Shown: positions 2,453 to 21,809 of the stretch, in pieces
Layout of the letters: every line of letters begins with the position of its first letter
Position numbering within the stretch: the first letter of the stretch is position 1
Origin: Clostridiaceae bacterium
GTDB lineage: Bacteria > Bacillota > Clostridia > Christensenellales > CAG-138
NCBI GenBank assembly: GCA_039683525.1
Contig: JBDKRF010000323.1
Coordinates: 1-40,979 of the forward strand
Length of the DNA: 40,979 nucleotides
Direction: 5' to 3'
The notes under the pieces: generated by a model
Seen by the model: the letters and a program-made list of their open reading frames with translations, nothing else
What the model was told of the DNA's origin: nothing
Databases searched by the model: none
Translations under genes and position numbers: made by a program

Positions 2453-3595
2453 CTATTCCGCGCGGATGATGATATATTGTTCTGGCGTGCCGTTTTCGTC
2501 CCGTTCTGTAAGCTCCTCGAAAACAATTAACACCATCGAATCTTTGAGCAAGGAATTCAGGCTTTGCTGGTCGAAATTGGATGACGATGCGATCACGCCT
2601 TGGTCATCCACATAGTCGCCAATGAAAACCCCGCTAATCGTAAGTAATTGTTGTCCGGATTGTTGACACGTATAAATCATGATAGAACCAAATGTCCGGT
2701 TGGAAATCGGCTTTCCGTCTAAGTCAGTCAATTGAATGGTAAAATTATCGCTGTATATTCTTCCTTCTGCAATAAGAGCAGCAAACATAGGCATAGTTGC
2801 TTCCGACTCGCTGCTCGCAGATCTAACCGTAAACGGATTCGAAGTGTACGTCTCATATCCTTCCAAGCGAATCGAATAGACATACTCTCCGGGTACGACA
2901 TCGTCGATTTGCGCACATACTCCGTCGGCATCGGAGATTACTTCCCGGATATCCCCTGTGTCAAGATTCGTCAGTTGCACAGTCGCACCCGCTAGCGGCT
3001 GATCTCCCATCAAGGGTTCCAAAAAATTGATGATAACGCAGTCAGTCACAATGAACAAAAAATTGTTCGCTTCATATATTGATTCGGGGACTGGTCCGTC
3101 TGGCATGTCAATCGAATCGTTCGTCGGGATGATGTTTGCCAGATACTGGCAGTGCGATTCCACCGTCAGGGTGACGTCGCCGCAGACTGTTTGCGTTGGA
3201 GGCGCGCTCAAATTATCTTCCACAATCGGTTTGCCATCTTTGCCAGCGTCATCGGGCGTTTGTGCCGTATCTTGCTGAGTCGCCTGCGCAAGTTCGCCGG
3301 TTGGCGCAGGCGCTCTGCTGATCAGAAACACGATCACTCCAACCGCAACGGCCAAAAACGCGAACAGTACGACCGCGAGAATCTTGAATCCGCCCGCATT
3401 GCGAGGCTTTTCTTCGCTTCCGGTACGGGGGGCGCTTTTTCCGGCTGGCTGTGCATAGCGGTAGTTTGCGCCCGGCTGCGGCTCGGTTTGCGCTTGCTTT
3501 GCTGTGGGTTCCGGTGTCATCCGGAGTGCCCCGCAAAGCATACAGACGCTATTACCTTCCTCATTTAACGTTTCACACTTTTTACAAGACCACAT
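2453..3595 (-). CDS. Zinc-ribbon (RanBP2-type) single-pass membrane protein with a PEGA/CarboxypepD_reg-like ectodomain
   Basis: N-terminus MWSCKKCETLNEEGNSVCMLC fits W-x-C-x2-C-x3-N-x6-C-x2-C exactly. TM is FKILAVVLFAFLAVAVGVIVFLI. The C-terminal module (GDVTLTVESHCQYLANIIPTN, QLTNLDTGD, PGEYVYSIRLEGYETYTS) is paralogous to the C-terminus of 19578..21809. RBS GGAG lies upstream of the ATG. Confidence 0.8.
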   Translation of the reverse strand: MWSCKKCETLNEEGNSVCMLCGALRMTPEPTAKQAQTEPQPGANYRYAQPAGKSAPRTGSEEKPRNAGGFKILAVVLFAFLAVAVGVIVFLISRAPAPTGELAQATQQDTAQTPDDAGKDGKPIVEDNLSAPPTQTVCGDVTLTVESHCQYLANIIPTNDSIDMPDGPVPESIYEANNFLFIVTDCVIINFLEPLMGDQPLAGATVQLTNLDTGDIREVISDADGVCAQIDDVVPGEYVYSIRLEGYETYTSNPFTVRSASSESEATMPMFAALIAEGRIYSDNFTIQLTDLDGKPISNRTFGSIMIYTCQQSGQQLLTISGVFIGDYVDDQGVIASSSNFDQQSLNSLLKDSMVLIVFEELTERDENGTPEQYIIIRAE

Positions 3596-3830
3596 GTTTT
3601 CTCCACATGAATTTGAATTTTCTTATGTTTTCAGTTCTGTTGATAAAGCACTGTTTTAAATGAAGTTGATCCAACGTATCACGTCGCAGCGCATCAAGTG
3701 CCTCTTTGTCGCTGCTTACCATAGCGCGGATGCCGGAACGGATTGGCGGATAAACGATTCCTTGGGATCGAATAACATGAATTATTATTCGCTCCGGTGT
3801 TACGTTGGCCGAATCAAAGATGCCAGTACA

Positions 3831-4457
3831 TTACAATGAACGCGGCGCGTGGAACGCGTTGTTCTGTTTTTGCTCTTGATAACCAATTCTAGCGGAGGGA
3901 CAAAGACTGGTCATAGTTCTCAACAACCGCTGTCCTTCCTCCTCGCTCGCTACGGGAAGCGAGAAAAGTATCTGGTTTTTACAATGCACTTTGATTTCGA
4001 ATTGAACCGAATTTGATTTGGCAACGGTTATGCCATACGCCTTTGTCTTGTGGGTAATATTGTTTTGTTGAATATGCATCCAAACAACGTCGGCAGTTTT
4101 CCAAATATGCGCTGTTATACCCTGTCTATATGCAATAAAGTAGGAATGGAATCGAACATCAATCGCTTGAAAACCCGGTTGTGGCGTAAGTGCATCGATT
4201 GCTGCCAGCACGTTGTCCCGATTGCCGATAGAATCCACTTCTGCAAGAAACGCGTCTATACTCTTCTGACCATTTGCACCTTTCGCAGACAAAGCAGCAA
4301 TCAAAGCCGCTAATCCAAAGAATAAAATCCCCCAGATAATTCCCTGTTCACCAAGCGTGATCGCAAGTATGCCTGGAACCAAAAACAATGCCGCAAACAT
4401 GATACCGCATCCCGCACTAGATTTGGATGCTTTTTTAATTTCTGAGAACCAAGACAT
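3831..4457 (-). CDS. Two-TM membrane protein of unknown function (no zinc ribbon)
   Basis: Two hydrophobic helices (GCGIMFAALFLVPGILAITL and IIWGILFFGLAALIAALSA) followed by a roughly 140-aa soluble domain. Same strand and composition as the island. Confidence 0.55.
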   Translation of the reverse strand: MSWFSEIKKASKSSAGCGIMFAALFLVPGILAITLGEQGIIWGILFFGLAALIAALSAKGANGQKSIDAFLAEVDSIGNRDNVLAAIDALTPQPGFQAIDVRFHSYFIAYRQGITAHIWKTADVVWMHIQQNNITHKTKAYGITVAKSNSVQFEIKVHCKNQILFSLPVASEEEGQRLLRTMTSLCPSARIGYQEQKQNNAFHAPRSL

Positions 4458-4559: not shown

Positions 4560-5594
4560 TCACCCAAGCACCGATGCTGGATCCGATTGACGGATATACG
4601 AGTCCCTTGGATCAAACAACATATAGGATTGTCGTTTGATCTGATCCATCTCGTCAACAAAATCATAATAGCCTTCCGGCAACTCGTCCGTTTCAGAATA
4701 CAATTTAGGAAGTTCCCCATGAATTATTTCAAAGGATTCACCGTTGGGTAAGAAGCTCATCGCTCGATAATAATAATCATACGTCATCGAGAGAAATGGC
4801 ATCCCATAGCAGCAAATGAGAAGGTATGATTCCCCTTCGCTCGTATATATCCCCAACGCACAACCTTTCGGGTCAAAGTACGTCTCGGCGGTATAGATCG
4901 CAACAACGGAGTCATTCTGACAGGTAAAAACGGTTAAATTGATTATTTCCTTGCCATATGTATTGTCGAGGATAAGCATTTCTTCCTCACCATCATGCGT
5001 TAAGTCCGCTAAAAAGACATTATATTTGTTCGTCGCATTCTCATATACAGGGTCCTCTAGCTTGTTGTCCCATCCATAATTCTCCGCAAAATATGCATAA
5101 TAGAGCTCCTTCGCTCTTGATGATTGCTCTGTCCGCGGTTGCTGCTCGGGTGCTTCGGTCGGAAGATTCTGTTCGTTCTGTGGCTCTTGTTCGGTCTGCG
5201 GCTCTTGTGCAGACTGACTTGGTTGATATCCGCCAAGCAATCTCGGCAGCAACAGAACGGCTGCGATACAAACAATAGCGGCGGCAACAATCACCACCAC
5301 ATTGTTGTTTGACTTGGTCGAAGGATGAGACTTTCTGCTTTCCTCTGCGCCCGCGCAATATCGGCATACAGTTAACCCTGGCTCGAGTTGTCTTCCGCAT
5401 CTGCCGCAAAACTTTGGTGCACTCTCATGCCCGAACCTGTTTTGTTCGGTGTAGCCTGGTGCGGTGTAGCTAGGTTTAGTGAAGTTTGATGTTGTGTTGT
5501 TTGGTGTCGAGTGGTTTGGCGCGGCTGCCTTGCACATGCGACATGCCGTACACGTATCTGGGTTTTGACAACCGCAGGTCTTACATTTCCACAT
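4560..5594 (-). CDS. Double zinc-ribbon single-pass membrane protein, variable ectodomain A
   Basis: First ribbon MWKCKTCGCQNPDTCTACRMC is RanBP2-type. Second ribbon is CGRCGRQLEPGLTVCRYC. TM is VVVIVAAAIVCIAAVLLLP, followed by a QEPQ-repeat linker. The ectodomain contains LADLTHDGEEEMLIL. RBS AAAGGAAAG. Confidence 0.8.
   Translation of the reverse strand: MWKCKTCGCQNPDTCTACRMCKAAAPNHSTPNNTTSNFTKPSYTAPGYTEQNRFGHESAPKFCGRCGRQLEPGLTVCRYCAGAEESRKSHPSTKSNNNVVVIVAAAIVCIAAVLLLPRLLGGYQPSQSAQEPQTEQEPQNEQNLPTEAPEQQPRTEQSSRAKELYYAYFAENYGWDNKLEDPVYENATNKYNVFLADLTHDGEEEMLILDNTYGKEIINLTVFTCQNDSVVAIYTAETYFDPKGCALGIYTSEGESYLLICCYGMPFLSMTYDYYYRAMSFLPNGESFEIIHGELPKLYSETDELPEGYYDFVDEMDQIKRQSYMLFDPRDSYIRQSDPASVLG
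5160..5594 (-). repeat. Direct repeat copy 1 (about 435 bp, zinc ribbon-TM-linker cassette)
   Basis: Manual alignment to 6386..6820. I counted 12 mismatches in the 194 nt nearest the ATG and fewer further in, so roughly 94-97% identity. Confidence 0.85.
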
Positions 5595-5779: not shown

Positions 5780-6820
5780 TCATCCGTTTGCTCGCGAAAC
5801 AGAACACCACGTTTTTTCTGTAAAACTTCCATCCCCGTTGAGCCAATAGAATCGAAACACATAACCTTTATATTCAAATTCCGCATCGTACTCTCCGTAA
5901 TAATGCGACATACCTTGTTGCTTGAGCGACTCTACCCATGAAAGAAACTCTTCCGGATTGGAAGGATCAAAATCAGGATTTGTCTCAATCATGGATGGGG
6001 TAAGGACTGAGGGTTGATTGATCCATTCGCGATAAAGATTTGCAATACTAATCTCGACTGAATCGCAATCGTCACCGTCTCTGAATGTATCCATATCGTC
6101 CAATTGCCAATGCTCATACTCTACGTAAAAATCTTCGGATGTCCAGGTATACCAGTATTCAGTAGGAACGACAAGTTCGCCAAAATCAAAACGATGATCT
6201 TGAGAATGCTCAAAAATAATCCTGTTTGCTCCATTAACATCGAATAAAACTTGCGAAACTCCACCCAATGTTTGTTCGACTTCGGAAAATGAAAGCCCTA
6301 GAAAGCGAATATTGTCATCTAGGAGGATTGCATCACACAAGGAGGTCAGCGATTTCACCTCTTGTGCTTCTTCTTGCTTAGGAGCCGGAGGATTTTGCTC
6401 AAACTGCGGCTCTTGCACAGTCTGCGGCTCTTGTACAGACTGACTCGGTTGATACCCGCCAAGCAATCTCGGCAGTAACAGAACGGCTGCGATACAAACA
6501 ATAGCGGCTGCAACAATCACCACCACATTGTTGTTTGACTTTGTCGAAGGATGAGACTTTCTACTTTCCTCTGCGCCCGCGCAATATCGGCATACAGTTA
6601 ACCCTGGCTCGAGTTGTCTTCCGCATCTGCCGCAAAACTTTGGTGCACTCTCATGCCCGAACCTGTTTTGCTCGGTGTAGCCTGGTGCGGTGTAGATAGG
6701 TTTAGTGAAGTTTGATGTTGTGTTGTTTGGTGTTGAGTAGTTGGGCGCTGCTGCCTTGCACATGCGACATGCCGCACATGTATCCGGATTTTGACACCCG
6801 CAGGTCTTGCATTTCCACAT
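5780..6820 (-). CDS. Double zinc-ribbon single-pass membrane protein, variable ectodomain B (paralog of 4560..5594)
   Basis: The first roughly 145 aa are nearly identical to 4560..5594 (7 substitutions). The C-terminal roughly 200 aa are unrelated. RBS AAGGGAAA. Confidence 0.8.
   Translation of the reverse strand: MWKCKTCGCQNPDTCAACRMCKAAAPNYSTPNNTTSNFTKPIYTAPGYTEQNRFGHESAPKFCGRCGRQLEPGLTVCRYCAGAEESRKSHPSTKSNNNVVVIVAAAIVCIAAVLLLPRLLGGYQPSQSVQEPQTVQEPQFEQNPPAPKQEEAQEVKSLTSLCDAILLDDNIRFLGLSFSEVEQTLGGVSQVLFDVNGANRIIFEHSQDHRFDFGELVVPTEYWYTWTSEDFYVEYEHWQLDDMDTFRDGDDCDSVEISIANLYREWINQPSVLTPSMIETNPDFDPSNPEEFLSWVESLKQQGMSHYYGEYDAEFEYKGYVFRFYWLNGDGSFTEKTWCSVSRANG
6386..6820 (-). repeat. Direct repeat copy 2 (about 435 bp, zinc ribbon-TM-linker cassette)
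   Basis: Same alignment as copy 1. The copies are offset by 1226 bp in the same orientation. Confidence 0.85.
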
Positions 6821-6866: not shown

Positions 6867-7739
6867 CTAACTCATAATCAGGTTTGTGATCTTGCAGTTG
6901 ACGGTGTTCGAATAAGGATTGTATTGCTTCGGAGGTTGAACCGCTACCTCGGAAAAAGAGATCTCTCTCTCAAAAACTATATCGTATGTGCATTCTGAGT
7001 CGTTTTGTAATGTAATGTCCTGAATATAGACCCAGTCCGTTCCGTTCTCACGAACCCAAACCGACCATTGATCACCGATGATATCGCCGTTCGTTAGAAC
7101 TGACTTGAAAGTAAGTGTAAATCCGTAACAGTTCGTCACCATCGGCGTAACTTGATAAACCGGGCCAACATAGCTCTTCATGGTTCGGTTTCCGGACCAG
7201 CAAAACTCATATCTCTGATCGTTTCCTGTTGTGAGATAATAAGTTATGGTTATGTTCTTTCCATCCGTTCCGATGATCGGTATCGGTTCATTGTATCCCA
7301 GACCTGGATCAACCAATATGTTTCCGGCATTGATTGTGCCATCGGGCGAGCAAGTAACCCCTACATCGTTTGCTGCACATGACCAGGTCATATGATCAGC
7401 GTCATCCCCTGACAGGCCAAAATCGCTAGTGCTACATTGGTAAATTTGTCGGAAGTTCAATGTCAGATAAACCGGCTCAAAGGCTGTGACTGCTTGTGCA
7501 GATACAGTGCTCAGCACTGGGTTACCTCGTGTTTGATTGCTTAATAAGAATACGATAAGGCCAACGATCAGCGCCGCAATCGTGATCGCGATCACTTTAA
7601 AAGAGGCTGAGCACTTCTTCCGATTTGTTCTCTGTTTCTTTTCTTCCAACAACGTCTCAACTTCATACGCTTTTCCGCATACTATACACGCAGATTGTTC
7701 GTCTTCATTAATCGTTTCGCAACAGGTACATTTCCACAT
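6867..7739 (-). CDS. Zinc-ribbon (RanBP2-type) single-pass membrane protein, variable ectodomain C
   Basis: MWKCTCCETINEDEQSACIVC fits the RanBP2 spacing. TM is FKVIAITIAALIVGLIVFLL. The roughly 210-aa ectodomain is beta-rich. RBS AGAGGATGGG. Confidence 0.75.
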   Translation of the reverse strand: MWKCTCCETINEDEQSACIVCGKAYEVETLLEEKKQRTNRKKCSASFKVIAITIAALIVGLIVFLLSNQTRGNPVLSTVSAQAVTAFEPVYLTLNFRQIYQCSTSDFGLSGDDADHMTWSCAANDVGVTCSPDGTINAGNILVDPGLGYNEPIPIIGTDGKNITITYYLTTGNDQRYEFCWSGNRTMKSYVGPVYQVTPMVTNCYGFTLTFKSVLTNGDIIGDQWSVWVRENGTDWVYIQDITLQNDSECTYDIVFEREISFSEVAVQPPKQYNPYSNTVNCKITNLIMS

Positions 7740-7815: not shown

Positions 7816-9009
7816 TTATGGCATTTTCACAAATATGCAACCGACGGTAACATAAGCGTAGAAGCTCAACTCTGTTGCCACTCCATCAACGATTGTGACG
7901 ACGGGCATGCTTAGGCTAGAAAAGAACGATTCGAAGCACTTTTCCGGATGATCGACGAATAAGTAATACTGATCGAGCGCAGAACCAACTGCACCTTCAT
8001 CGTTATATACCGTTAACGTCGCTGGAACACGAAACTGAATGCGCTCTTCCAATAAATGCAGTGCCCAGTAACTTCCCCATCCGCTCGCATCTACCAGCAC
8101 ATAATCCCAACCTTGGTTTCTAAAATAATTCGCATGCGGAAACGCATCCACCTTAAGAATGAGACGCGTGTCCCGCCCGTATTCGATGATTTGATTCTCT
8201 TCATCAAACACATAAGCCTCTCCATTCGGGTCTGGATTGATCGACGCCCCATAATTAAAATTACTATCGTTCAGAACGTAATACCGTTCTGATTTCAGCT
8301 CGCCAATCTTCCCGGTTAGCAAGTCAACATATCCATTGGCAAGTATTGTCTGATACTCACTCTCGGAAAACACAACCTCTTTGTCATGTGTGATATATGC
8401 GTCAACGATGATCTCATTTGCCTGTTGGTCAAGATTTGCGGAAGCAACATAGACGCGCGCATCCGTATATGTAACGTTTGTCTTTGGTTGCTCGCTTTGC
8501 TGTGCGGGCGGAGTCTCTTGATCGGTTCCAGTTTCTTGCTCGTTTTCGACATTCGCAGCAGCCCCATCGTTACCGTCGTTCACGTTAGGGGCATCCGCGA
8601 TAGGAGCATCCGAGTTGTTCTCTTCAACTGGTGTTGACTCAACCTGCAAGGTATCGTTCGCGTGTACAGGCGAAATCATACCTGACACTGCGGCTACCCC
8701 AACTAAAAAAACGACCGCAGCAGCGGAGATTGTTGCGATCTTAACAACAGAACGCACACGATCGAATGAGGTTCCCTTCATTCGGTACGTCGTCGGTTCT
8801 GTAACACCCGGTCTGCAGTAGCGGCAAGTCGTCTCGCCTTCCATCAACGGTTTCCCGCATTTGCCACAATAGCGCTCAACTCGGTCCGTCTTAAAGACAG
8901 GGCGCTCTCTTCTAGGTTCGGCAACGCCTGATGATTTGCTTGCCCTGCACATGCGGCAACTCATAACGGGATCCGGGTTTTGACATCCGCAGGTTTTACA
9001 TTTCCACAT
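7816..9009 (-). CDS. Double zinc-ribbon single-pass membrane protein, variable ectodomain D
   Basis: The track ORF extends to 9045. I prefer the ATG at 9009, which gives MWKCKTCGCQNPDPVMSCRMC, because GAGAGGAA sits 7-8 nt upstream and the start then matches the paralogs. Second ribbon is CGKCGKPLMEGETTCRYC. TM is VVKIATISAAAVVFLVGVAAV. Confidence 0.75.
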   Translation of the reverse strand: MWKCKTCGCQNPDPVMSCRMCRASKSSGVAEPRRERPVFKTDRVERYCGKCGKPLMEGETTCRYCRPGVTEPTTYRMKGTSFDRVRSVVKIATISAAAVVFLVGVAAVSGMISPVHANDTLQVESTPVEENNSDAPIADAPNVNDGNDGAAANVENEQETGTDQETPPAQQSEQPKTNVTYTDARVYVASANLDQQANEIIVDAYITHDKEVVFSESEYQTILANGYVDLLTGKIGELKSERYYVLNDSNFNYGASINPDPNGEAYVFDEENQIIEYGRDTRLILKVDAFPHANYFRNQGWDYVLVDASGWGSYWALHLLEERIQFRVPATLTVYNDEGAVGSALDQYYLFVDHPEKCFESFFSSLSMPVVTIVDGVATELSFYAYVTVGCIFVKMP

Positions 9010-9080: not shown

Positions 9081-10850
9081 TTATGATTGATGAACTCGAA
9101 GCGCGCTTAGAAAGCGGCCCATCTGTTCGTTAGAAATCAAATCCAAGCAAATCTGTTGCGGTGCCTCATCACTCTGATCGCGATAGATCTCGCCGTCTCT
9201 GTTCGCAACACTCAGGATCAGTTCCGTATGCATCGGTAATCTGGCTTGCGATGCACTCTGTATAATCACGCAAGTCTTGTATGCACGATTTCCAAACAAA
9301 GGCAACGTCTCCAAATCTGATTTAGTCAGTTCTGCACCTTCAAGTACGAAAAGAACCACAAATCGATTCTTTACTTCCTCTGCATCCTGACCATGTTGAC
9401 CCAACATACGACTGCGTTGTTCAAATACGGATCGGACGGCACTTACTTCATCCCCATTTGTTTCTATAATCTGTTGTACATGCGGCAGTTGAGATATCTT
9501 TGCCCAGTCTGTTGCATTCTTTTCCGCTCCCACGAGAACAAATTCAACTTCTTCCGGACTATGAAACGTCGCAAGCTGAATAATGATGCTTTGTATGACC
9601 GGAGACGTTTCGTTTGGGTCTCCTAGCATGCCAATCATCGACTGCATTTTCAGATCGAGTAGCACTGGCGCCGGAGAGATATAGCGGTGTGCTTCCACAA
9701 GATCGCGCATTCGCGTATGCAGTTCCGCTTCTCTTTCTTCATAAGATATTGGGCTCATCAAGATGCCTAGTTCGAACGCTCGCTCTCCTCTTCCTACTCG
9801 CACGCAAAGAAAATCATCATCCTTCTCCGTACGTTCCCAGATTCTCTCACTGCGAGATTTCATCAAAGCGATGCAACCCTCAATCGAGGGATTTTGTAAA
9901 GTCAACATCTGCAGCTGACGCTCGGCTCGCTGATTCCAAGCGTGCTCTAGCTTCTCCAAGTACTCGATATACTGAAGCTTCTTCCATTCTTGATTTGCAC
10001 GCCATTGTGAGGTTTGTAACAGATACTCAGCTATCCCTCCAGATAGTCCGACCACAAACATTGCGCCGATGAGTGCCGCATAGAACGACAAACTCGAGGC
10101 ATGCGAAAGCAAGATCATCACAAGAAGCGTAGTGATCAAAGATAGCACGATCGACGGCGCGAAAAATACGTACTTCCAGTTCGCTCGAAACAAACCATCA
10201 ACCTTTGGTGGTGGTTCGATCATAATCTCTTCAATCGGGGTATCATTGTAGAATCGATTCGTTCCTCGTTTGTCAAATGGGCGCGGTATTCTCCAAGCGC
10301 GCTTAGCAATCTCATCTTCTTTGATCAAGACAGATTTCTCTTGCTCTGTTGCTCGAAGGGTATTACTGTTCGGTTTCTCCGCGTGGTGAAAGCTTGCGAT
10401 ATGAAACCAAGGCGAGCGCGTGCTGTAATCATTCTCACCAACAGCCGAACTTACACTTGCAGGAGGATTGCTCGATTTTTTGAATAGCATGTCATTGCTC
10501 GTTGCCGAGGACTCGGTATCGCGCAAACTCACACTGCTCGACGCCGGACTTTTCATGCTAATGCCGGGTGCGCTAAACCGAGCTGGATGAAACGCGGTTC
10601 GAGCCTCAACTATATCCAATGTTTCAGAGGAGCGCTCCGCCTTCATTGCGGCACGGGTGTTTTCATTCTCCGCTTTGTTGGTATCATACTGTGCAAACCG
10701 CGCAGGATGAAAGCCATCTCCAGCGCCATGTTTTGCTTCGGTTGGAGGTTGGCCATCCAGAACAATCAGTTGCTTTGTCATCCGCCTGCCGCAGAGGTTG
10801 CAAAACTGCACCCCTGCCGGATTCAGATGCCCGCACTCGAAACAGCGCAT
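9081..10850 (-). CDS. Zinc ribbon + Ser-rich linker + 2 TM + EssC/EccC N-terminal-like (pre-ATPase) domain, with no FtsK ATPase domains
   Basis: N-terminal ribbon is MRCFECGHLNPAGVQFCNLC. FHPARF occurs twice in the linker. The two TMs are YVFFAPSIVLSLITTLLVMILL and FYAALIGAMFVVGLSGGIAEYLL. After them come YIEYLEKLEHAWNQRAERQ, ERIWERTEKDDDFLCVRVGRGE, IIIQLATFHSPEEVEFVLV and WAKISQLPHV. These follow my remembered pattern of the region after the TMs in T7SS EssC/EccC (lWeR..d.dFl.vRvG.g ... hsP.d ... W.W.kWLPH). No Walker A is visible. Confidence 0.6.
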   Translation of the reverse strand: MRCFECGHLNPAGVQFCNLCGRRMTKQLIVLDGQPPTEAKHGAGDGFHPARFAQYDTNKAENENTRAAMKAERSSETLDIVEARTAFHPARFSAPGISMKSPASSSVSLRDTESSATSNDMLFKKSSNPPASVSSAVGENDYSTRSPWFHIASFHHAEKPNSNTLRATEQEKSVLIKEDEIAKRAWRIPRPFDKRGTNRFYNDTPIEEIMIEPPPKVDGLFRANWKYVFFAPSIVLSLITTLLVMILLSHASSLSFYAALIGAMFVVGLSGGIAEYLLQTSQWRANQEWKKLQYIEYLEKLEHAWNQRAERQLQMLTLQNPSIEGCIALMKSRSERIWERTEKDDDFLCVRVGRGERAFELGILMSPISYEEREAELHTRMRDLVEAHRYISPAPVLLDLKMQSMIGMLGDPNETSPVIQSIIIQLATFHSPEEVEFVLVGAEKNATDWAKISQLPHVQQIIETNGDEVSAVRSVFEQRSRMLGQHGQDAEEVKNRFVVLFVLEGAELTKSDLETLPLFGNRAYKTCVIIQSASQARLPMHTELILSVANRDGEIYRDQSDEAPQQICLDLISNEQMGRFLSALRVHQS

Positions 10851-13654: not shown

Positions 13655-15253
13655 CTATAGTTTCTTTGGGCGCTTAAAGTAGCTGTTCGCTTCGGGGTCG
13701 GTCGGCGTAGTCGAAGTTGCAGTGGGAGCGCTAATTGTAGATTTCAGTTTTGCTTTCGGTTCTAGAGGCTTATCCGCTGATTCCGTTGAAACTCGACCTG
13801 CTCCGCTTTCCGCTTCGGTGTGCATGGAGGATTTCATCCGTGGCGCAGGCGTCGATGTCGAGCTGCTTTTCTCTTTAGTAGACGCGCCCATGCTGGATTT
13901 CAGCGCCGGCTTTTTAAAGTGCCCATCCGTTACAATCCCGCTGCCCGAACGCTTTTCGTCTTCAGGAGTGTTCATATCGTGGGAGGTTTTCAGCCCACCC
14001 TTAACGAAACCGCCAGAGCCGGATTGGCCATTATCTGCATCGTACGTTCTGTGCCCCGTCTCTGACCCTCGGAAAACGGAGGTGGGCTTCTCTTCTCCAC
14101 ACTTTGCACAGAAATGAGCATCATTTCTTAGTCCGCAACGTGGGCATGTCCATCTACTTTCCGGAGGAGGAGGGGGAAACTCCAGACCATCAATTCTTTC
14201 TCCGCCCGATCCCCGCTTGCCTTTTTTCGCAATCAGAAGGTATATCCCACCTCCGAGGAGCGCAAGCAGCGCGACCCCTCCTGCAATCAGCAATACATTT
14301 GGTCCGCCTGTTGGTGTCTGATTTATGTCTGTTGATGAATCTGGCGGAACAACAGCTTCTTCCGGTGTCGCAGCGGGTTCTTCCACCGGAGCCTGGATCG
14401 GCTCTTCTGGAACTGCTTGCGGCACTTCAGGTGCAGGCGTCGATGTTTGCGGTACAGGCGTTGCCGCTTGGGTACCATCCGATTTTTCGTAAGCAATGCC
14501 TGAGTTGTTCAGAAAATCCATTGCATAATCGATATAAAGTGCAAAATTCGTGTTTTGTGCATCTATTGCTCCGCAAGAAACGATACCTACTACACATCCG
14601 TCCTCCGTGACTAACGGACCTCCTGAGTTTCCAGAGTTAATCGACGTATCAATTTGAATGTATTGATCATTTTCCAACGTACTGGATTCACGAGTCACAG
14701 AGCCTTTCGTTACAGTTATATAGTCAATTGAAGATGCCATTACATCTTCAGATGAGCCAACTTCAGCGGACCACGGAAATCCCATGGCGTATACAGTGTC
14801 TGTGACTGCTACTTTCTCGGCAGATTTCAATGTCAGTGCGCTGCGCGTCGTCGTTGGAGCATTTAGCTTTAGAATAGCCAAATCGACATTGTCGAATATC
14901 TTAACAACTTGACAATTCATCGTTAAGTCAGAGTTGTATATTGTATCTATGACCGCAACACAATAGATACTGGGGTCTTCTTCGTAATAATAATCACTAC
15001 CGTCATACGTATTAGCGGAACCAGCTACATGGGCATTGGTTACGATATATTCTACCGGCTTACCAGCTTCTCCAACAAAGAACCCTGTTCCCCAACCTAT
15101 GATTTCCCCGGTCTCTTTATCTACGACAGCAATCCGAACTACACCGTTCCGCGCATCCTGAACGGGGCTTGAAGCTTGAGCAGTAGCAAGCGGCAGCATG
15201 AGCAGCAGAACCAAAGCCACGAAGATTGCTTGAATTCTTTTCAACTTTTTCAT
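13655..15253 (-). CDS. Type I membrane-anchored trypsin-like (S1) serine protease with a cytoplasmic C-terminal zinc ribbon and Ser/Thr-rich tail
   Basis: Signal peptide MKKLKRIQAIFVALVLLLMLPLATAQA. Catalytic triad contexts are VTNAHVAG, NVDLAILKL and GNSGGPLV. A Pro-rich linker leads to TM LLIAGGVALLALLGGGIYLLIA. The ribbon is WTCPRCGLRNDAHFCAKCG. The roughly 150-aa S/T/K-rich tail ends in SYFKRPKKL. Confidence 0.85.
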   Translation of the reverse strand: MKKLKRIQAIFVALVLLLMLPLATAQASSPVQDARNGVVRIAVVDKETGEIIGWGTGFFVGEAGKPVEYIVTNAHVAGSANTYDGSDYYYEEDPSIYCVAVIDTIYNSDLTMNCQVVKIFDNVDLAILKLNAPTTTRSALTLKSAEKVAVTDTVYAMGFPWSAEVGSSEDVMASSIDYITVTKGSVTRESSTLENDQYIQIDTSINSGNSGGPLVTEDGCVVGIVSCGAIDAQNTNFALYIDYAMDFLNNSGIAYEKSDGTQAATPVPQTSTPAPEVPQAVPEEPIQAPVEEPAATPEEAVVPPDSSTDINQTPTGGPNVLLIAGGVALLALLGGGIYLLIAKKGKRGSGGERIDGLEFPPPPPESRWTCPRCGLRNDAHFCAKCGEEKPTSVFRGSETGHRTYDADNGQSGSGGFVKGGLKTSHDMNTPEDEKRSGSGIVTDGHFKKPALKSSMGASTKEKSSSTSTPAPRMKSSMHTEAESGAGRVSTESADKPLEPKAKLKSTISAPTATSTTPTDPEANSYFKRPKKL

Positions 15254-15285: not shown

Positions 15286-16269
15286 CTAGAACCCTTTGGG
15301 GCGCTTAAAGTATGAATCTGGAGTCCTAGCAGGTGGGGTTGTCCTCGGGGGTTCCGGCACAACTTCGCGAGAACCACTTGCAGATCCCCCTGTCGGCGTT
15401 TTTGATCGACCACAAATGGTGCAGAAGCTCATTGTGTTACGCGTTCCGCAACCTGTACAAACCCATGTGCCCGGTTCATCAGAGCGCACGGTCGTCCCTG
15501 TTCGAGTGTGCGTGGTGGTTTCCCTACCATAGGTTCTGCTTCTGTCGGCTGCTTCAATCTCGACATAATAGCCCGCAAGAGAGGTCATATAGTAGGGCAT
15601 AACATAGAAAACGCCCAAGATTCCCAGTGTCAGCAGGTTGAGCAGATGCCAGCCGATAAAGCTCAACTCCAGAACAAAGATGTCGAGTTTTCTCCCTTCC
15701 GTCATCTGAATGGATCGTTTTAGCGCCTGCTGTGAAGTCATCTCCGGATGATCCATGAGAATGAATGGAGTCAGGCAATACGAATAGACCTTGATCACGT
15801 TCATCACGGGAATGCAACCCCAAAGCGCACACCAAAGCAACCACCAAAGGGTGCCACCCAGCATGTGAGAGTAATTCTTGAAACCGAGATGCGCATCCTT
15901 CACTTCAATATGTTGCTTCCGGTAAAGTTTTACACCCGCGTACAGCTGACCGCACTGGAGAATCTGCAGATAAAAGATGCAGGCAAAGAAGAAACCGACC
16001 GGCCACGCTAGAGTGAAAATCAAGCCGATGACCAAGCCAACACCTATCTCAATCCCAAGCACGGCGAGCCATAACCGAACGGTCGTTTTGCTTTGCAGCG
16101 AAATTGCGATTTTCGCGTTCTGTTTGATGACGCTGCGCGTCGGAATTGGCGATGCTGAATATGGCAGCGATCCGCTTCCATAAGTGCTGGTAGAAGCAGC
16201 TTCTCTTGCACCGCAATGTGTGCAGAACATGCTGTCATTTCTCGTTCCGCATGACGGACAAGTCCACAT
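15286..16269 (-). CDS. DUF975-like polytopic membrane protein flanked by N- and C-terminal zinc ribbons
   Basis: N-terminal ribbon MWTCPSCGTRNDSMFCTHCG and C-terminal ribbon WVCTGCGTRNTMSFCTICG. The DUF975-like core includes LSFIGWHLLNLLTLGILGVFYVMPYY. The protein ends in SYFKRPKGF. Confidence 0.75.
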   Translation of the reverse strand: MWTCPSCGTRNDSMFCTHCGAREAASTSTYGSGSLPYSASPIPTRSVIKQNAKIAISLQSKTTVRLWLAVLGIEIGVGLVIGLIFTLAWPVGFFFACIFYLQILQCGQLYAGVKLYRKQHIEVKDAHLGFKNYSHMLGGTLWWLLWCALWGCIPVMNVIKVYSYCLTPFILMDHPEMTSQQALKRSIQMTEGRKLDIFVLELSFIGWHLLNLLTLGILGVFYVMPYYMTSLAGYYVEIEAADRSRTYGRETTTHTRTGTTVRSDEPGTWVCTGCGTRNTMSFCTICGRSKTPTGGSASGSREVVPEPPRTTPPARTPDSYFKRPKGF

Positions 16270-16294: not shown

Positions 16295-17092
16295 TTATCG
16301 CATTGTCGATTTTAAGCGAGACTTGGGCTGCTCTTCCTGTGTGCCTCGGGCGGGTTTTGAACCCTTCTCAACCATCAGGCTATATTCTTCCCGTGCCGGT
16401 ACCACCGGCTGGGTTTCCGGCTTTCTCGGGGTCTCGAAACCGCCCTTTTTAAACAGGACATTTTCCCGCTCAATCAGTTTCTTGACATACATGGTTGCGA
16501 AAAACACGCAGAGCGCATAACAAAGCACAATCAGCAGCGGAACAACGTTATGGTCAGCATTGCCGAAGTAGATGAAGCCGCAATAGATCACAATCGCGAA
16601 CAGGCTCACCCACGATATGGTGACGGGGAGATTTCTCTTGCGACTGTCAAATGAAATCAGAATGAAGATTGCCGGTAGGATCGCAAAAACCAGCAGGACA
16701 AGCGAGCAAACCTGCTCAATCGGGCCAACAATCCCCAATGCCATGTTGTAGACAGTGTAATACGTGTAATAATTGACAAATGGCTGCGCAAAGAGCACAA
16801 ATGCGAGAAAAACGCACAAGATGATGCCCGCTTTGAAGAAATTCGCGGTTTGGGTCAGATCGTCATATTTCTCTTGCAGGACAGCCGCGTCTGTCGAGAT
16901 TTTGATGACATCAGATTTCGTTTTTGCATCGTTCATCGATGTATCCGTATATCGCTTCTTCTCTACAAAAGTCTCTCTCCTGATACAGGTGTCCTCAACC
17001 GGTACAACTATTGCGGGCTTCTCCGCTGCGCAGACAACACAGAAGCGATCCGAATCTTCATTCTTGCTCTCACATGTTTTGCAGTCCCACAT
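16295..17092 (-). CDS. Zinc-ribbon (RanBP2-type) protein with a four-TM membrane domain
   Basis: The track start at 17107 is a TTG. The ATG at 17092 gives MWDCKTCESKNEDSDRFCVVC, with AGGGAG 7 nt upstream. About four hydrophobic helices follow a roughly 70-aa linker. Confidence 0.75.
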   Translation of the reverse strand: MWDCKTCESKNEDSDRFCVVCAAEKPAIVVPVEDTCIRRETFVEKKRYTDTSMNDAKTKSDVIKISTDAAVLQEKYDDLTQTANFFKAGIILCVFLAFVLFAQPFVNYYTYYTVYNMALGIVGPIEQVCSLVLLVFAILPAIFILISFDSRKRNLPVTISWVSLFAIVIYCGFIYFGNADHNVVPLLIVLCYALCVFFATMYVKKLIERENVLFKKGGFETPRKPETQPVVPAREEYSLMVEKGSKPARGTQEEQPKSRLKSTMR

Positions 17093-17138: not shown

Positions 17139-17852
17139 CTAATTTTTCTCGATCAATTCCCATTGCGCAAACAGCGTTAAGTCGCCAGACAGTTCCATAT
17201 CAAACACCGCATTGGCTGAGTATTGTCCGCCTTTTCCATCCTGGCGCGTGTTCCATCCGAGAAACCGAAACGTCTCCGTGTCCTGGAACAGCGGGAGATG
17301 AACATCTTCCCCCTTCGAAGGAGTGATATCTTTTGGCGTCGGGGGAAATTTTGCGGTATCGGCAGCTTTCGGAAGATTGAGGTCAAAGTGAATAACGGCG
17401 CTGGCAGTTGTTATTGCCGGGGTTGACTCCGCAGAGGTCGTCGGGGTCGATACGGCACTTTTCTGGTCGGTTGCATCAGTCTGAGTAGTCGCCATCAAGC
17501 TTGACAGCTTCTCCAGCTTAGCAATCTCCGCGCGATTCTTCGCGATGCCAATTGCGCAAAACGCCGTACAAAGCAGTGTGAACACCGCAAGAATGACCGC
17601 ATAGCGGAACATCGTGGCTTTCATCTGCTTTTTCGTCGGCAGGTTCCGTACATAATCAGCCAAGCGATCGAACGCATCCCGTAAACTCGTGTCAACCATT
17701 ACAGTTGGGCCTTCCGGCTTGGTCTCCACGCCGCGAATCGGTACGACCGGTGGTCGATAGTTGTATCTTGCGGCAGCGTTTGTGGGCTTACCGCAGTACT
17801 TGCAATATTCGACCATGTGTTCAATCGATTCCCCACAGTTTGGACAAATCAT
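17139..17852 (-). CDS. Zinc-ribbon single-pass membrane protein with a Listeria/Bacteroides-repeat (Flg_new-like) ectodomain
   Basis: MICPNCGESIEHMVEYCKYCG is a generic Cys4 ribbon without the W/N signature. TM is FRYAVILAVFTLLCTAFCAIGIA. The C-terminus FRFLGWNTRQDGKGGQYSANAVFDMELSGDLTLFAQW resembles the InlB B-repeat / Flg_new motif. Confidence 0.75.
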   Translation of the reverse strand: MICPNCGESIEHMVEYCKYCGKPTNAAARYNYRPPVVPIRGVETKPEGPTVMVDTSLRDAFDRLADYVRNLPTKKQMKATMFRYAVILAVFTLLCTAFCAIGIAKNRAEIAKLEKLSSLMATTQTDATDQKSAVSTPTTSAESTPAITTASAVIHFDLNLPKAADTAKFPPTPKDITPSKGEDVHLPLFQDTETFRFLGWNTRQDGKGGQYSANAVFDMELSGDLTLFAQWELIEKN

Positions 17853-18008: not shown

Positions 18009-18713
18009 TCAAGAGCGAGCGCCAATCATATCGGCTAAGAATTTGAAATCATACTCAAAAAGTCCGCCTCTATCATCAAAAAACTTCTCGCGATAAACGT
18101 TGTACCATTCCTCTGATATTCTGTGCCAACTAGATTCATCGGGTGTTACCAATATCATTTTCCAGTATCCATTATCACCAACACTTTTGTTTTGAATTTC
18201 GTCATTCCAACTATTTGCAAGTATATCGAATGAACAAGGAGTCTTAATTGGGCAGGAGTTTTCCATATTGTTGCCTATTGGACTGGTTTTTGACTTTGCC
18301 AATACAATGATTCCTTCTCTGATACGATGTTGAAATTCTAATGAATCTTGTTTGTAATTTTGTAAAATGTTCATTGCACACCATATTGCTTCTAGGCCGC
18401 TACACCGCGGGTCAACATTTCTTCCTCCACCGATATATTCGATCCCTTGCAGAGCTTCCTGAAAATGTGATTCTTCTTCTGGAAAATGAAATGGCCCCCG
18501 AAGTTCGAGCGATTTCTCTCCATCGCACTTGCAATTTCTGAACAATATCAGAAAAAACTTTATATTACTTTCCGCCGTTAAAATATCTCTTTTAAGATCT
18601 TCGACCATAATTCTAGCAGCACTGGTTGCGTAATCAACGAAATCCTGTGAGTATGCTTGCGTTCGAGAAGTAGCCTCAACACAAAAAACCAGATTTAAGT
18701 CAACAGCGCTCAT
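18009..18713 (-). CDS. Second cytoplasmic vWA-like protein with a degenerate MIDAS
   Basis: DLNLVFCVEATSRT aligns with DLTFCIDATRSM of 12934..13614, but has Glu for the first Asp and a shifted Ser. GGGRNVDPRCSGLEAIWCAM corresponds to GGGDDPEDGLEALAYAI. No signal peptide. Confidence 0.65.
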   Translation of the reverse strand: MSAVDLNLVFCVEATSRTQAYSQDFVDYATSAARIMVEDLKRDILTAESNIKFFLILFRNCKCDGEKSLELRGPFHFPEEESHFQEALQGIEYIGGGRNVDPRCSGLEAIWCAMNILQNYKQDSLEFQHRIREGIIVLAKSKTSPIGNNMENSCPIKTPCSFDILANSWNDEIQNKSVGDNGYWKMILVTPDESSWHRISEEWYNVYREKFFDDRGGLFEYDFKFLADMIGARS

Positions 18714-18733: not shown

Positions 18734-19453
18734 TTATCTCCGAATCAACAATCCACTTTCGAAGCGTTTGATCGCTTCCTTCATCTGCGCCGCATACTGT
18801 CGTCCAATCGGAAGTTTAATATTCTGCTCGAGCGTGAATTCATTCGCCTGATATCGCGTTACTTTTCGCAGATTCACATGAATGCTTCTATGGCACTGCA
18901 CAAAGTCGAGTCCGCAAGCAGAATCGACAATCTCTTGCGGTAGTTGATACGTCTCGATGGTGTCATCCTTCGTTACGATATGCGTCTTGCGCTGTACGCG
19001 TTCGAGATACAGCACCTCGCGGCAGGGGACATAGATCTTCTCGCTGTTTGCTGTAACCACAAAAAAAGAATGCTCCATAGCTGCTAAGTTGACCACCGAT
19101 TTTTGAATCGCGGTCACCAAGTGCAGTGGAACATATTCTTTCGGCAGAATGCATGTGTGATTCATCTCATAATATTCAGGGAAAATTCGATTTCTTTCGC
19201 TGATTAATACGATCTGACAAGCTTCATTCTTTTTTGTCATCTCTCTTGCGATAAATACGCCGTTGTGCGTTCCCAGTTCCCGGCTGATGATTGCAATATC
19301 GAACGCCTCGGTGCGCAGAAATACATCGGAAATCATCCACTCCGGGTCCGTATAGGTCGCAACGGTCGCAAACGAAACCTCACGGATCTGCCTGAGGAGT
19401 CTACAAATATATTCGATGTAATCTGCCTGCGTTTCACAAATGGCTATTCGCAT
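18734..19453 (-). CDS. LytTR-family DNA-binding regulator with a pseudo-receiver domain
   Basis: The C-terminus (VPCREVLYLERVQRKTHIVTKDD ... FVQCHRSIHVNLRKV) is LytTR-like. The N-terminus has receiver-like topology. However, the acidic pair reads ICETQ rather than DD, and the expected phospho-acceptor position reads DIAIISREL rather than D..LDI. Confidence 0.7.
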   Translation of the reverse strand: MRIAICETQADYIEYICRLLRQIREVSFATVATYTDPEWMISDVFLRTEAFDIAIISRELGTHNGVFIAREMTKKNEACQIVLISERNRIFPEYYEMNHTCILPKEYVPLHLVTAIQKSVVNLAAMEHSFFVVTANSEKIYVPCREVLYLERVQRKTHIVTKDDTIETYQLPQEIVDSACGLDFVQCHRSIHVNLRKVTRYQANEFTLEQNIKLPIGRQYAAQMKEAIKRFESGLLIRR

Positions 19454-19577
19454 GCAAAAAAGATCCCCCGCCTTGTTCTTGCGAAATCTACAACCAACGA
19501 GTCATATTACTGTAAATCATCTTACCGCTGTTATTTCTTACTTGGTTTTCTTTTGCGATACCAGGTCAACTTGCTCC

Positions 19578-21809
19578 CTAATTTGCACGAATGAGAATGC
19601 ATTGACCAGCTATAGTGCCTTGACTCCAATTGAGGCTGTCGTCAAACGAAATAATCGCGATACTCCCTTTTTTTAACGAGTATAGGTTTGTCGGCGCCCA
19701 CCCATCGGAAGTAATCATTCCGTCCTCGTCAATTCTATCGCCTAGTGTCATCATGCTATAGTTATTTAGTCCCTCCGTACTTTCACAAGCAATGAGTGAA
19801 ATTATATTAAACTTCTTTGACGCAACCGGATTCCCCGCAAGATCCGTGATTTGAATCTGGAATCCATTGCTGAAGACACTACCCTCTTCTATTAAACTGT
19901 AGGAAGCCCAAACGTATTCGTTATCCGCACCCGATACGTAATTCAACTCAAATGTTGGAGAGGTGTATGTAATATATCCGGCTTTTGACACGGTATACCG
20001 ATACTCTCCGGAAGGCAGGTCGGTAAAAGGATCAATCAGCGAATCGGAATTTTGCGTTCTCTCCCATGTTGTCTGCGTATCTAGGTTGGTCAGTTGTATC
20101 AATGCGCCGGGCAGCATCGTTCCCAACCCGATACCATCCTTATTGATCAATCTACAATCGTCGATTGAAACATGCACGGTATTTGCATCATATGTCATTC
20201 CAGCAATGTAAGCATCGCTCTGGTTAATCGTTTCATTTGTAGGAATCAGTTTCGCCAGATAATCTCCGGTTGACTCAACCGTCAGCGTAACATCACCAAT
20301 CTGAATTCCGTTATTATTGTTTTCCTCCACGGTCCTCTCTGATGTATTCATCGCAAGCTTGAAATCCCCACCGGATTCATCCTGAATAAACCGCACATCG
20401 GTGATGCAGATGTTGATATCATCAGATTGTTCCCAAATTCCGATTCGACCGTCCTGATAGAGTGCGGTTGTTTCCCAGCCGCCAAATGCAACTGCGATGA
20501 TGGATTGATTATCCTTGAGTTCATTTACCTTTGCTGGCTTCATGAAAGATGCGAATGCCTCTGTTAATAAGCATCCCGATGTGTAATATCCATATCCATA
20601 TACGCTTCCGTTCTCATCTAGAAGGTATAGACCCGAGATGCCACCATTTTGATAAATAAATGAGCCCAGTTCAGAGTAATCCGTTGGTTGCGAATTATTT
20701 TCGTAGATCGATAAACTCCCTTTCTCATCCAGCCACGCAAAATAGGCGGATCTTTCAACTTGAACCGACTCAAACAGTGACCAGTTTGACGAAGTGGTCG
20801 CGAAGTCTATGGGAGCTGGTGTATTACTGTATTTCTTGGAACCACTCGTAAGGAGATTTGTTCCCCAATAATAGAATTCGCCACTCGTTGCTTGAGCAAC
20901 AACCATGCTATATCCCGGTTCGAAGTCATTGTAGATGCACTGGATTTTTCGAATCGGCGGTAAACCTTCAATTGCCGTTGAAGTTTCAAACTGATTGTCA
21001 TCCGCTCCCAATCCGAAAACGCCATATTTCCCGTTTCCAAAAACCCAGACCTGTCCTTGGGCGTCGAGCGCAAGCAGTCCTAAGTCCATTGAGTCAATGA
21101 TTTCTAGATCAATGATATTCTCCAATCCCGAAATCTTTTGCAACCCGTAATTTAGTGTTTTATTCTCCCAATAAAGCTCCGTCCACCAGACTGAGCCATC
21201 TTTTTTTACAACAAACAACCGCGCCGACCAATCAACGCCTGCCGTGTATATTTCCGCGGCATCCGTTATATCGCTCGGCCGCGCGACATAGTCGTTTTGA
21301 TCCCAAATCCATACGGTACCGGAAGCATCGATCGCAGCGCCCCAACGAAACTCATCAACCACGTCGGCTGTGCCTGAATATATCGAATCAATCACGATTT
21401 GATGATCATCAACGGAGGATGAAACGGGTTGACCGGCATCGTTCATTTGCGGAGCCATCGTTTCCATTGGGATTGCAGGAGGCTCCGTTACTTGCGGTAC
21501 GCCTTGATACGCCGATTGTCTGGAGACGAGCACAACGATTGCGACAACTGCAGCCAACAAGAGAACACACAACACACCAATCAGAATCGCTATGCGGTTC
21601 TTCTTGCGCGGTTCTCTGTCTTTTTGAGAATTGTTCTCGTCCGCATCTTGTCGACTCTGAGAGGATTGTTGATTGTTTGCTGAAAAGCTATTTTTATTTG
21701 AAGTGCGTTGCTGTTCTTCTTTCACCGCTCTCGGTTCGTCGCATAAAGCACAAGTGCTTTGTTCATCCTCATTGAGTGTTTCGCATCTCTTGCAGGTCCA
21801 CATGCACAT
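19578..21809 (-). CDS. Zinc-ribbon (RanBP2-type) single-pass membrane protein with an RCC1-like beta-propeller and a PEGA-like C-terminal module
   Basis: The track ORF reaches 21893. GGGAG lies just upstream of the ATGs at 21809 and 21803, giving M(CM)WTCKRCETLNEDEQSTCALC. TM is IAILIGVLCVLLLAAVVAIVVLV. RCC1-like blades include DASGTVWIWDQ, KKDGSVWW and DAQGQVWVFGNGKYGVFGLG. The C-terminal module is paralogous to 2453..3595. Confidence 0.8.
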   Translation of the reverse strand: MCMWTCKRCETLNEDEQSTCALCDEPRAVKEEQQRTSNKNSFSANNQQSSQSRQDADENNSQKDREPRKKNRIAILIGVLCVLLLAAVVAIVVLVSRQSAYQGVPQVTEPPAIPMETMAPQMNDAGQPVSSSVDDHQIVIDSIYSGTADVVDEFRWGAAIDASGTVWIWDQNDYVARPSDITDAAEIYTAGVDWSARLFVVKKDGSVWWTELYWENKTLNYGLQKISGLENIIDLEIIDSMDLGLLALDAQGQVWVFGNGKYGVFGLGADDNQFETSTAIEGLPPIRKIQCIYNDFEPGYSMVVAQATSGEFYYWGTNLLTSGSKKYSNTPAPIDFATTSSNWSLFESVQVERSAYFAWLDEKGSLSIYENNSQPTDYSELGSFIYQNGGISGLYLLDENGSVYGYGYYTSGCLLTEAFASFMKPAKVNELKDNQSIIAVAFGGWETTALYQDGRIGIWEQSDDINICITDVRFIQDESGGDFKLAMNTSERTVEENNNNGIQIGDVTLTVESTGDYLAKLIPTNETINQSDAYIAGMTYDANTVHVSIDDCRLINKDGIGLGTMLPGALIQLTNLDTQTTWERTQNSDSLIDPFTDLPSGEYRYTVSKAGYITYTSPTFELNYVSGADNEYVWASYSLIEEGSVFSNGFQIQITDLAGNPVASKKFNIISLIACESTEGLNNYSMMTLGDRIDEDGMITSDGWAPTNLYSLKKGSIAIISFDDSLNWSQGTIAGQCILIRAN

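Follow-up and report, generated by a model that had tools for sequence, protein, structure and literature searches.

Within a 40,979-nucleotide stretch of contig JBDKRF010000323.1 from the Clostridiaceae bacterium assembly GCA_039683525.1 (the window), we examined a 19.5-kb block (~2.45-21.9 kb) of co-oriented minus-strand genes, designated by letters below, whose G+C (guanine plus cytosine) fraction of 0.42-0.49 stands against 0.54-0.63 across most of the remaining window. At the centre of this island lies a trio transcribed in the order J-I-H and encoding a stand-alone vWA protein, a PP2C-type phosphatase and a Ser/Thr kinase. The trio is surrounded by genes for membrane proteins that bear short cysteine motifs of the zinc-ribbon type on their predicted cytoplasmic side. 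Ten of these ribbons combine a Trp ahead of the first Cys with an Asn after the second (the W/N class), and we found this class to be separable from the plain ribbons of the same island, conserved among orthologs and closely linked to the trio in related bacteria.

A six-frame regular-expression scan of the window for zinc-ribbon patterns returned exactly seven matches to W-x-C-x2-C-x3-N-x6-C-x2-C (x6 ribbons), all on the minus strand, each immediately preceded by an ATG and carried by proteins A, C, D, E, F, M and Q. This confirmed the strict signature described in a first-pass annotation of this DNA, which had counted six such proteins rather than seven, and recovered the three further W...N ribbons with an x4 spacer that it had listed, one on the tail of K and one at each end of L. 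Another five CxxC-x10-CxxC ribbons are plain, lacking the Trp; C, D and F each have one as their second ribbon, and G and N each begin with one. Outside 3.5-21.8 kb the window contained no W/N ribbon. Compared with 200 mononucleotide shuffles of the window, which do not preserve dinucleotides, ten W/N ribbons were observed against a mean of 0.0, and 16 generic ribbons against 0.43. The ribbons and the proteins that carry them are as follows, with transmembrane (TM) helices given by residue number and scores referring to Pfam profiles, of which PF00641 is the RanBP2-type zinc finger.

3533-3595, minus strand: A, Met-Trp (MW) x6 ribbon (match 3533-3592; gene 2453-3595); TM 65-83, CarboxypepD_reg ectodomain; PF00641 21.6 bits for the isolated module; orthologs keep MW..N.
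5532-5594, minus strand: C, MW x6 ribbon (match 5532-5591; gene 4560-5594); plain second ribbon at 5355-5408, TM 94-112; PF00641 20.9 bits, top match.
6758-6820, minus strand: D, MW x6 ribbon (match 6758-6817; gene 5780-6820); plain second ribbon at 6581-6634; PF00641 17.4 bits, top match.
7677-7739, minus strand: E, MW x6 ribbon (match 7677-7736; gene 6867-7739); TM 42-60; PF00641 20.8 bits.
8947-9009, minus strand: F, MW x6 ribbon (match 8947-9006; gene 7816-9009); plain second ribbon at 8815-8868, TM 85-103; PF00641 18.4 bits.
17030-17092, minus strand: M, MW x6 ribbon (match 17030-17089; gene 16295-17092); four TM helices; PF00641 27.2 bits for the isolated module.
21741-21803, minus strand: Q, MW x6 ribbon (match 21741-21800; gene 19578-21803); TM 67-85, ectodomain with an RCC1 propeller and CarboxypepD_reg; PF00641 18.1 bits, top match.
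16213-16269, minus strand: L N-terminus, MW x4 ribbon (match 16213-16266; gene 15286-16269, a DUF975 multi-pass membrane protein); best match DUF7577, 35.7 bits.
15412-15465, minus strand: L C-terminal cytoplasmic tail, W x4 ribbon, kept in orthologs.
14099-14152, minus strand: K cytoplasmic tail, W x4 ribbon (gene 13655-15253; signal peptide, trypsin-like domain, TM 315-333, then the ribbon), kept in orthologs and in related locus L037.
10791-10850, minus strand: G N-terminus, plain ribbon MRCFECGHLN... without Trp (gene 9081-10850); two TM helices; PF13240 20.2 bits, no PF00641 match; orthologs keep the plain class.
17793-17852, minus strand: N N-terminus, plain ribbon (MICPNCGESIEH...; gene 17139-17852); best matches Zn_ribbon_3/DUF7575, no PF00641 match; class kept in orthologs.

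Eight proteins therefore begin with Met-Trp, namely the seven x6 proteins and L. A purine-rich, Shine-Dalgarno-like stretch lies upstream of every Met-Trp ATG and syntenic orthologs start at the same MW, which supports the assigned starts of F, M and Q, whose open reading frames (ORFs) extend further upstream. The ribbons of C, D and F (WKCKTCGCQNPDTCTACRMC) hold additional cysteines, so the set of residues that would ligate zinc in them is ambiguous. Hydropathy predicts a cytoplasmic position for all 15 ribbons: some precede a single TM helix, that of the secreted protease K is on the tail past its second TM, and multi-pass proteins carry them at either end. Judged by predicted topology and an AlphaFold2 (AF2) model, the ribbon is the sole folded cytoplasmic part of most ribbon proteins in the island. 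The AF2 model of M is only moderate overall, with a mean per-residue confidence (pLDDT) of 59. It comprises a small beta-rich N-terminal module with a pLDDT of 72-78, followed by a linker at residues 28-59 and, past four TM helices, a tail, both of them disordered; the module, modelled with no zinc, has short beta elements at residues 2-3, 10-11, 17 and 24.

The three genes of the central trio are listed below.

12934-13614, minus strand: J, stand-alone vWA protein with a conserved DxTxS motif, candidate docking partner; VWA_4 36.8 bits.
11905-12894, minus strand: I, PP2C/PPM-family phosphatase; no Pfam match, assigned by its ortholog profile.
10913-11926, minus strand: H, Ser/Thr protein kinase without a ribbon of its own; Pkinase 102.9 bits.

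J is a bare vWA domain of 226 aa and has more than 1800 homologs. D18, T20 and S22 of its DxTxS motif are invariant, and the motif is MIDAS-like (MIDAS being an adhesion site that depends on metal ions). Its AF2 model (pLDDT 83.5) has integrin beta I-like domains as its top Foldseek matches (2e-8), which bears out the vWA fold. The ortholog profile of I matches the bacterial PP2C/PPM phosphatases tPphA, PstP and Stp1 at 1.4e-5, with ED, DGxGG, GDSR and DG invariant. The kinases closest to H are defence-associated ones such as mad6 and PD-T4-6. Of the trio, H alone matched PADLOC models, those of generic defence kinases; no PADLOC or NCBIfam model was matched by J, I or the ribbon proteins.

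The arrangement recalls the TerY-P triad, in which a TerY-like vWA protein and a PP2C phosphatase accompany a Ser/Thr kinase whose C-terminus bears a fused zinc ribbon (PMC11090510, citing Anantharaman et al. 2012). Both systems have the same three enzymes or domains in the same order, a zinc ribbon linked to the kinase position, and an island or plasmid setting; by composition and gene order, J-I-H is a putative phospho-switch of the TerY-P-like type. The two differ in how the ribbon is attached. Whereas the TerY-P kinase itself bears the C-terminal ribbon (or an OB fold), in the window type the ribbon is the product of a separate gene that usually lies a short way downstream, and a TM helix is attached to it: none of 77 H-family kinases carries a ribbon, nor do the J and I homologs. 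Moreover, the ribbon component is here expanded to ten copies with diverse ectodomains. We also sought the classical TerY-P kinase-ribbon fusion on plasmids and found none among 16 matches.

We then followed the trio beyond the window. Scanning with a J-family alignment, one genome per species, yielded 80 loci (1.15 Mb) from gut and rumen Clostridia (Oscillospiraceae, Lachnospiraceae, Ruminococcus, Christensenellaceae and Faecalibacterium); J occurs in all 80 of them, I in 75 and H in 77. The window's own ribbon proteins are poorly conserved, each occurring in 1-4 of the 80 loci. W/N ribbons as a class number 66-68 in 48-50 of the loci, and every one of them shares the strand of the trio and lies no more than 6 kb from the vWA gene; ~344 kb of more distant flank at these loci contained none. 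Their density peaks just after the kinase: 19 of 73 loci have a ribbon that starts between -60 and +300 nt relative to the stop codon of the kinase gene. Most loci hold a single W/N ribbon gene. This tight linkage of one ribbon class to a conserved trio in many bacteria makes the ribbon the most likely candidate for the membrane handle of the trio.

We next asked how the W/N ribbons relate to known families. The RanBP2-type signature, W-x-C-x(2,4)-C-x3-N-x6-C-x2-C, is matched exactly by the seven x6 ribbons of the window and not by the three x4 ribbons. When the modules were scanned in isolation (29-30 residues), PF00641 was the top Pfam family for all seven x6 modules at 17.4-27.2 bits, while PF13240 (Zn_Ribbon_1) gave at most 20.7 bits and no match for D and Q. 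The gathering cut-offs of these families are 27 bits for PF00641 and 25 bits for PF13240, and only the module of M reaches the former, the other six falling below it. In whole-protein scans PF00641 scored 10.8-21.5 bits, under the cut-off in all seven proteins, and was nevertheless the best zinc-ribbon match for most MW proteins. The signature and the profile preference for RanBP2 that the first-pass annotation had proposed are therefore real for the x6 ribbons, with formal Pfam membership attained by one module only. In the x4 ribbons, which it had listed beside them, PF00641 aligns with the first knuckle only, and DUF7577 (for example at 35.7 bits), Zn_ribbon_3 or DZR fit better.

The generic bacterial ribbons of PF13240, PF12773 (DZR) and PF13248, to which the five plain ribbons of the island belong, resemble the W/N class in their CxxC-x10-CxxC spacing and in their N-terminal position ahead of a TM helix. 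They are set apart by their residues: plain ribbons start M-[FIY]-C and have a Gly after Cys2 and a Phe before Cys3, whereas the W/N class has a Trp two residues before Cys1, a Glu or Asp after Cys2 and an Asn at +4, and scores lower on PF13240. Across related loci PF00641 was matched by 36 of 43 W/N modules and 9 of 43 plain ribbons, and PF13240 by 26 of the 43 W/N modules, compared with 42-43 of 43 plain ribbons for PF13240/DZR. Trp and Asn occur together (76 of 82 W ribbons also have the Asn), and the W/N cores are acidic, with a mean charge of -1.4 versus +0.6 (p 8e-6). The two classes are nonetheless related, at an hhalign probability of 97.6%.

Eukaryotic RanBP2/NZF fingers (PF00641, IPR001876) have a signature identical to that of the x6 ribbons of the window, but they occur as arrays in nuclear-pore and ubiquitin-pathway proteins, whereas a module of the window class stands alone at the cytoplasmic end of its bacterial membrane protein. 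The shared signature raises the alternative of a eukaryote-like ligand at the membrane, either single-stranded RNA, the ligand of ZRANB2, or a ubiquitin-like beta-grasp protein, the kind that NZF fingers bind. When PDB sequences were searched with a profile of the W/N modules, the best match was to 9hcj, a repeated "RanBP2-type zinc finger" (E 4e-13), followed as the best non-repeat match by the archaeal protein ArnA (5a8i, 8s05; E 7e-6, 28.8 bits, full module covered); rubredoxin knuckles and L40e were matched as well, and the fingers of RBM10, Nup153, HOIP and TRABID were marginal (E 0.007-0.23), as was a RanBP2 finger. The weak matches to RBM10, Nup153, HOIP and TRABID speak for such a ligand. 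NZF fingers contact ubiquitin through a Thr-Phe pair after Cys2, and ZRANB2 contacts RNA through N-[FW]-x-x-R. Each of these motifs occurs in 0 of 43 modules and the net acidic cores would be unfavourable for RNA, and on both counts we rejected a ubiquitin- or RNA-binding subtype. With no beta-grasp/YukD-like or RNA-related family among the island proteins either, a eukaryote-like ligand is very improbable.

ArnA offers a closer comparison. Its N-terminal finger in Sulfolobus acidocaldarius (MWKCNLCGYENDDDALFCIKCG) has been described as RanBP2-type (PMC6509490, PMC12852372). In the crystal structure 8S05 this finger binds the vWA protein ArnB within a kinase- and phosphatase-controlled switch (PMC12852372), and the ArnA-ArnB complex is tightened by phosphorylation by ArnC (PMC12852372, PMC6509490). 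ArnA resembles the window ribbons in having Met-Trp at residues 1-2, the same W/C/N spacing and a disordered linker after the finger, and in working with a vWA protein, Ser/Thr kinases and a phosphatase. It differs in being a soluble protein with an FHA domain, whereas the ribbon proteins of the window are membrane-anchored and Pfam scans found an FHA domain in none of the island proteins; its phosphatase is of the PP2A type and that of the window is PP2C. The profile scores also run the other way from those of the x6 ribbons, as the ArnA finger (residues 1-28) scores 34.9 bits on PF13240 and 25.3 bits, below the cut-off, on PF00641. Given that a finger named RanBP2-type scores higher on PF13240, the boundary between the two families is soft. 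We also considered J as an ortholog of ArnB, which phmmer, the PDB profile search and Foldseek did not support, the last pointing to integrin beta I-like domains instead. Our search of the literature on bacterial RanBP2-type ribbons found nothing beyond ArnA.

Conservation of the W/N residues was evaluated in five syntenic loci whose vWA proteins are 70-92% identical. Each ortholog retains its own ribbon class while the other ribbon positions vary: orthologs of A, C, D, E, F, L, M and Q retain MW...N, and those of G and N retain plain ribbons. In the M family, which has only 14 detectable homologs, M1, W2, C4, C7, N11, C18 and C21 are invariant in the 11 that were aligned. An acidic residue follows Cys2 in 47 of 55 W/N ribbons from the wider set of loci. 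The conservation of Trp and Asn anticipated by the first-pass annotation is thus borne out, the two residues being invariant in orthologs. Its suggestion that the free N-terminus matters is not. W/N modules of related loci begin at residue 2 or lie at residues 3-25, internally or at the C-terminus, K and L of the window likewise carry theirs C-terminally, and the crystallised ArnA chain has 17 extra residues ahead of the Trp. Because of these internal and C-terminal modules and the ArnA chain, a free N-terminus is not required; the Met-Trp start would be an architectural by-product, the ribbon simply being the first domain of N-in membrane proteins.

Distant forms of the system were identified through a protein search of plasmids with kinase H. 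On plasmid pHAU01 of Herpetosiphon aurantiacus (Chloroflexota), Haur_5138, Haur_5139 and Haur_5140 are members of the J, I and H families (E 5e-85 and 4e-79 for the J and I homologs; kinase 35.7% identity, E 5e-42). An 82-aa ORF that lacks annotation overlaps Haur_5140 at its 3' end (L207:7079-7327, corresponding to CP000876.1 ~192212-192460) and encodes a W/N ribbon (WICDNCETHNILRNDLCEVC), a short linker, one TM helix and nothing else; it is not in the PLSDB gene table for pHAU01, which is itself incomplete. On a Calothrix plasmid the gene after a J-like vWA gene encodes a kinase that itself has a C-terminal TM helix, and no ribbon is present; one Ser/Thr kinase from a metagenome has a W/N ribbon directly fused to it. 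These architectures in Herpetosiphon, Calothrix and the fused kinase point to the ribbon as a conserved fourth member alongside the trio, with a usual role that involves the membrane.

The minimal Herpetosiphon system also bears on whether the ribbons serve as assembly glue, binding each other or the cytoplasmic part of the EssC-like protein G and so clustering the paralogs, with the trio regulating them without touching the ribbons. Such a role would suit an island that packs ten W and five plain ribbons together, with tandem pairs in C, D and F. It would also suit G, which itself bears a ribbon and resembles the membrane-proximal N-terminal part of the type VII secretion ATPase EssC/EccC (EssC/EccCa; TIGR03928 positions 9-407 of 1296, E 1e-46), the rest of which is missing from its 589 aa; EssC carries FHA domains where G has the zinc ribbon. 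However, the Herpetosiphon system consists of one ribbon and no G, G-like proteins occur in only 2 of the 80 loci as opposed to W/N ribbons in 48-50, and the single W/N gene of most loci speaks against obligate ribbon-ribbon arrays. We regard assembly glue as decidedly unlikely.

As a reverse test we scanned metagenomes for the MW-ribbon DNA pattern regardless of context and obtained at least 120 stretches. Among the matches listed, 44 look like true gene starts, of which 27 have a downstream TM helix and 8 adjoin a J-I-H trio, the latter adding to the evidence for linkage. MW ribbons away from the trio are fused to AIM24, PBP-like, LRR_5/DUF285, GH85_C/fn3 and YARHG domains. Since most MW ribbons in this metagenome sample lie apart from the trio and on unrelated domains, the ribbon fold has uses beyond the trio system. 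The scan, together with an archaeal ArnA finger already called RanBP2-type, indicates that prokaryotes are not poor in this class, which runs counter to the first-pass view of the signature as mostly eukaryotic.

The breadth of these fusions is what a generic cytoplasmic cap would predict, that is, a fast-folding, zinc-stabilised plug that fixes N-in topology and protects the short end of exoproteins, has no specific partner and has W/N as a mere structural variant of the ordinary bacterial ribbon. Many unrelated ectodomains follow MW ribbons with no trio nearby, plain ribbons of the same loci also start at residues 1-3 (MFCxKCG...) ahead of a TM helix, hhalign ties the two classes together, and the ArnA finger prefers PF13240 to PF00641. 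A cap nevertheless leaves several observations unexplained: the confinement of the W/N class to within 6 kb and the strand of the trio, the conservation of ribbon class in each ortholog, including the surface acidic residue after Cys2, the 82-aa gene with ribbon and TM helix but no ectodomain to anchor, and ribbons that sit on a C-terminal tail or at each end of a multi-pass protein. On balance we consider the cap unlikely, though it deserves serious weight.

To the reading that we instead prefer, that the W/N ribbons are cytoplasmic docking handles linking varied membrane proteins to the TerY-P-like vWA-PP2C-kinase switch, we assign an even chance. In this mechanism each ribbon, presumably zinc-bound, would be joined to one or more membrane helices through a linker that is disordered and rich in Ser, Thr and Pro, with a variable domain outside (an RCC1 propeller, an Ig-like domain, a protease, DUF975 or none). 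The ribbons would form a fourth, membrane-bound component of the soluble J-I-H trio and would bind one of its members, for which the vWA protein J is the first candidate by analogy with the complex of the ArnA finger and ArnB and by genomic linkage. The kinase-ribbon fusions, in the metagenomic protein and in published TerY-P triads (PMC11090510), hint in the same direction. Docking would tether the switch to many different membrane proteins, and the tethered switch could then phosphorylate and dephosphorylate their juxtamembrane linkers and tails.

Several observations weigh against docking. A W/N ribbon is missing from nine of the 35 trio loci with complete flanks, plain ribbons are likewise enriched near the trio, and among the metagenome matches listed 36 of the 44 genuine-looking MW starts are not beside a trio. 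No ribbon-vWA fusion was seen. The ArnA precedent is also imperfect, in that the published contact between the ArnA finger and ArnB is small and weak, and the finger site on ArnB is formed by a beta-sandwich and a C-terminal helical domain, both absent from J, which is vWA only. Furthermore, the J profile does not detect ArnB or ArnE in the PDB, and the 50 closest structural neighbours of the J model include neither of them.

A bolder extension of the docking reading, which we think rather unlikely, would make the RanBP2/NZF finger an old prokaryotic vWA docking module from which the eukaryotic fingers descend, and the fourth part of a ribbon-vWA-kinase-phosphatase switch common to bacteria (Clostridia, Chloroflexota) and archaea (ArnA/ArnB); the ten-member, receptor-like array of the window would then plug diverse extracellular domains into one phospho-switch. 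Such an origin would offer a possible prokaryotic root for a finger usually regarded as eukaryotic. Within the "zinc ribbon + TM" motif, which is very common in gut Clostridia, the present analysis makes one subclass the candidate membrane tether of a conserved, mobile vWA-PP2C-kinase switch, and it relates a bacterial system to ArnA-ArnB, whose finger is the sole structurally characterised prokaryotic one of the RanBP2 type. The ribbons are best viewed as a RanBP2-like subclass that would serve a TerY-P-like system as its separate, membrane-linked ribbon component, here in ten copies with swapped ectodomains. Small genes for a ribbon and a TM helix escape annotation, as on pHAU01. If docking is true, abundant gut bacteria would have here a signalling or defence island with the variable ectodomains as its candidate sensors or effectors.

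The ectodomains themselves vary sharply between close paralogs. The first ~128 aa of C and D, comprising both ribbons and the TM helix, are ~98% identical, and the ectodomains that follow are unrelated, which suggests that outside domains may be swapped in cassette fashion behind a near-identical N-terminus. A and Q have a common C-terminal domain of 240 aa with 37% identity. Orthologs of F in the more distant loci L085 (14999-17956) and L086 (15772-18645) carry 3-4 tandem ribbons and a large Peptidase_S8 (subtilisin) ectodomain; F of the window has 397 aa.

The island encodes a second vWA-like protein besides J.

18009-18713, minus strand: O, second vWA-like protein; Med25_VWA, E 0.004.

O reads VEATSR where J has IDATRS, so that ExTxR replaces the DxTxS motif and the MIDAS-like site looks degenerate. 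It is confined to the closest relatives, being present in L081, L083 and L084 and absent from L085 and L086, and adjoins P (18734-19453), a LytTR response regulator.

Short repeated or terminal motifs recur in several island proteins. K and L both terminate in YFKRPK[KG][LF], kinase H terminates in VWHKPRVLN, and M terminates in K-x-R-L-K-S-T-M-R, which is invariant in 11 homologs. The tail of K repeats [LM]K[ST]S[MHI] four times, and G has three FHPARF/FHIASF repeats. It is possible that these short linear motifs of K, L, M, G and H are docking or phosphorylation sites.

Finally, the surroundings of the island differ among relatives. It lies beside shikimate-pathway genes in the window and in L083 and L084, and beside adenine deaminase and a permease in L085; in L081 its far end differs. 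Members of the trio families are also found on the Herpetosiphon and Calothrix plasmids. The G+C fraction, the shifting neighbours and the plasmid relatives are consistent with an island that is mobile or rearranging.

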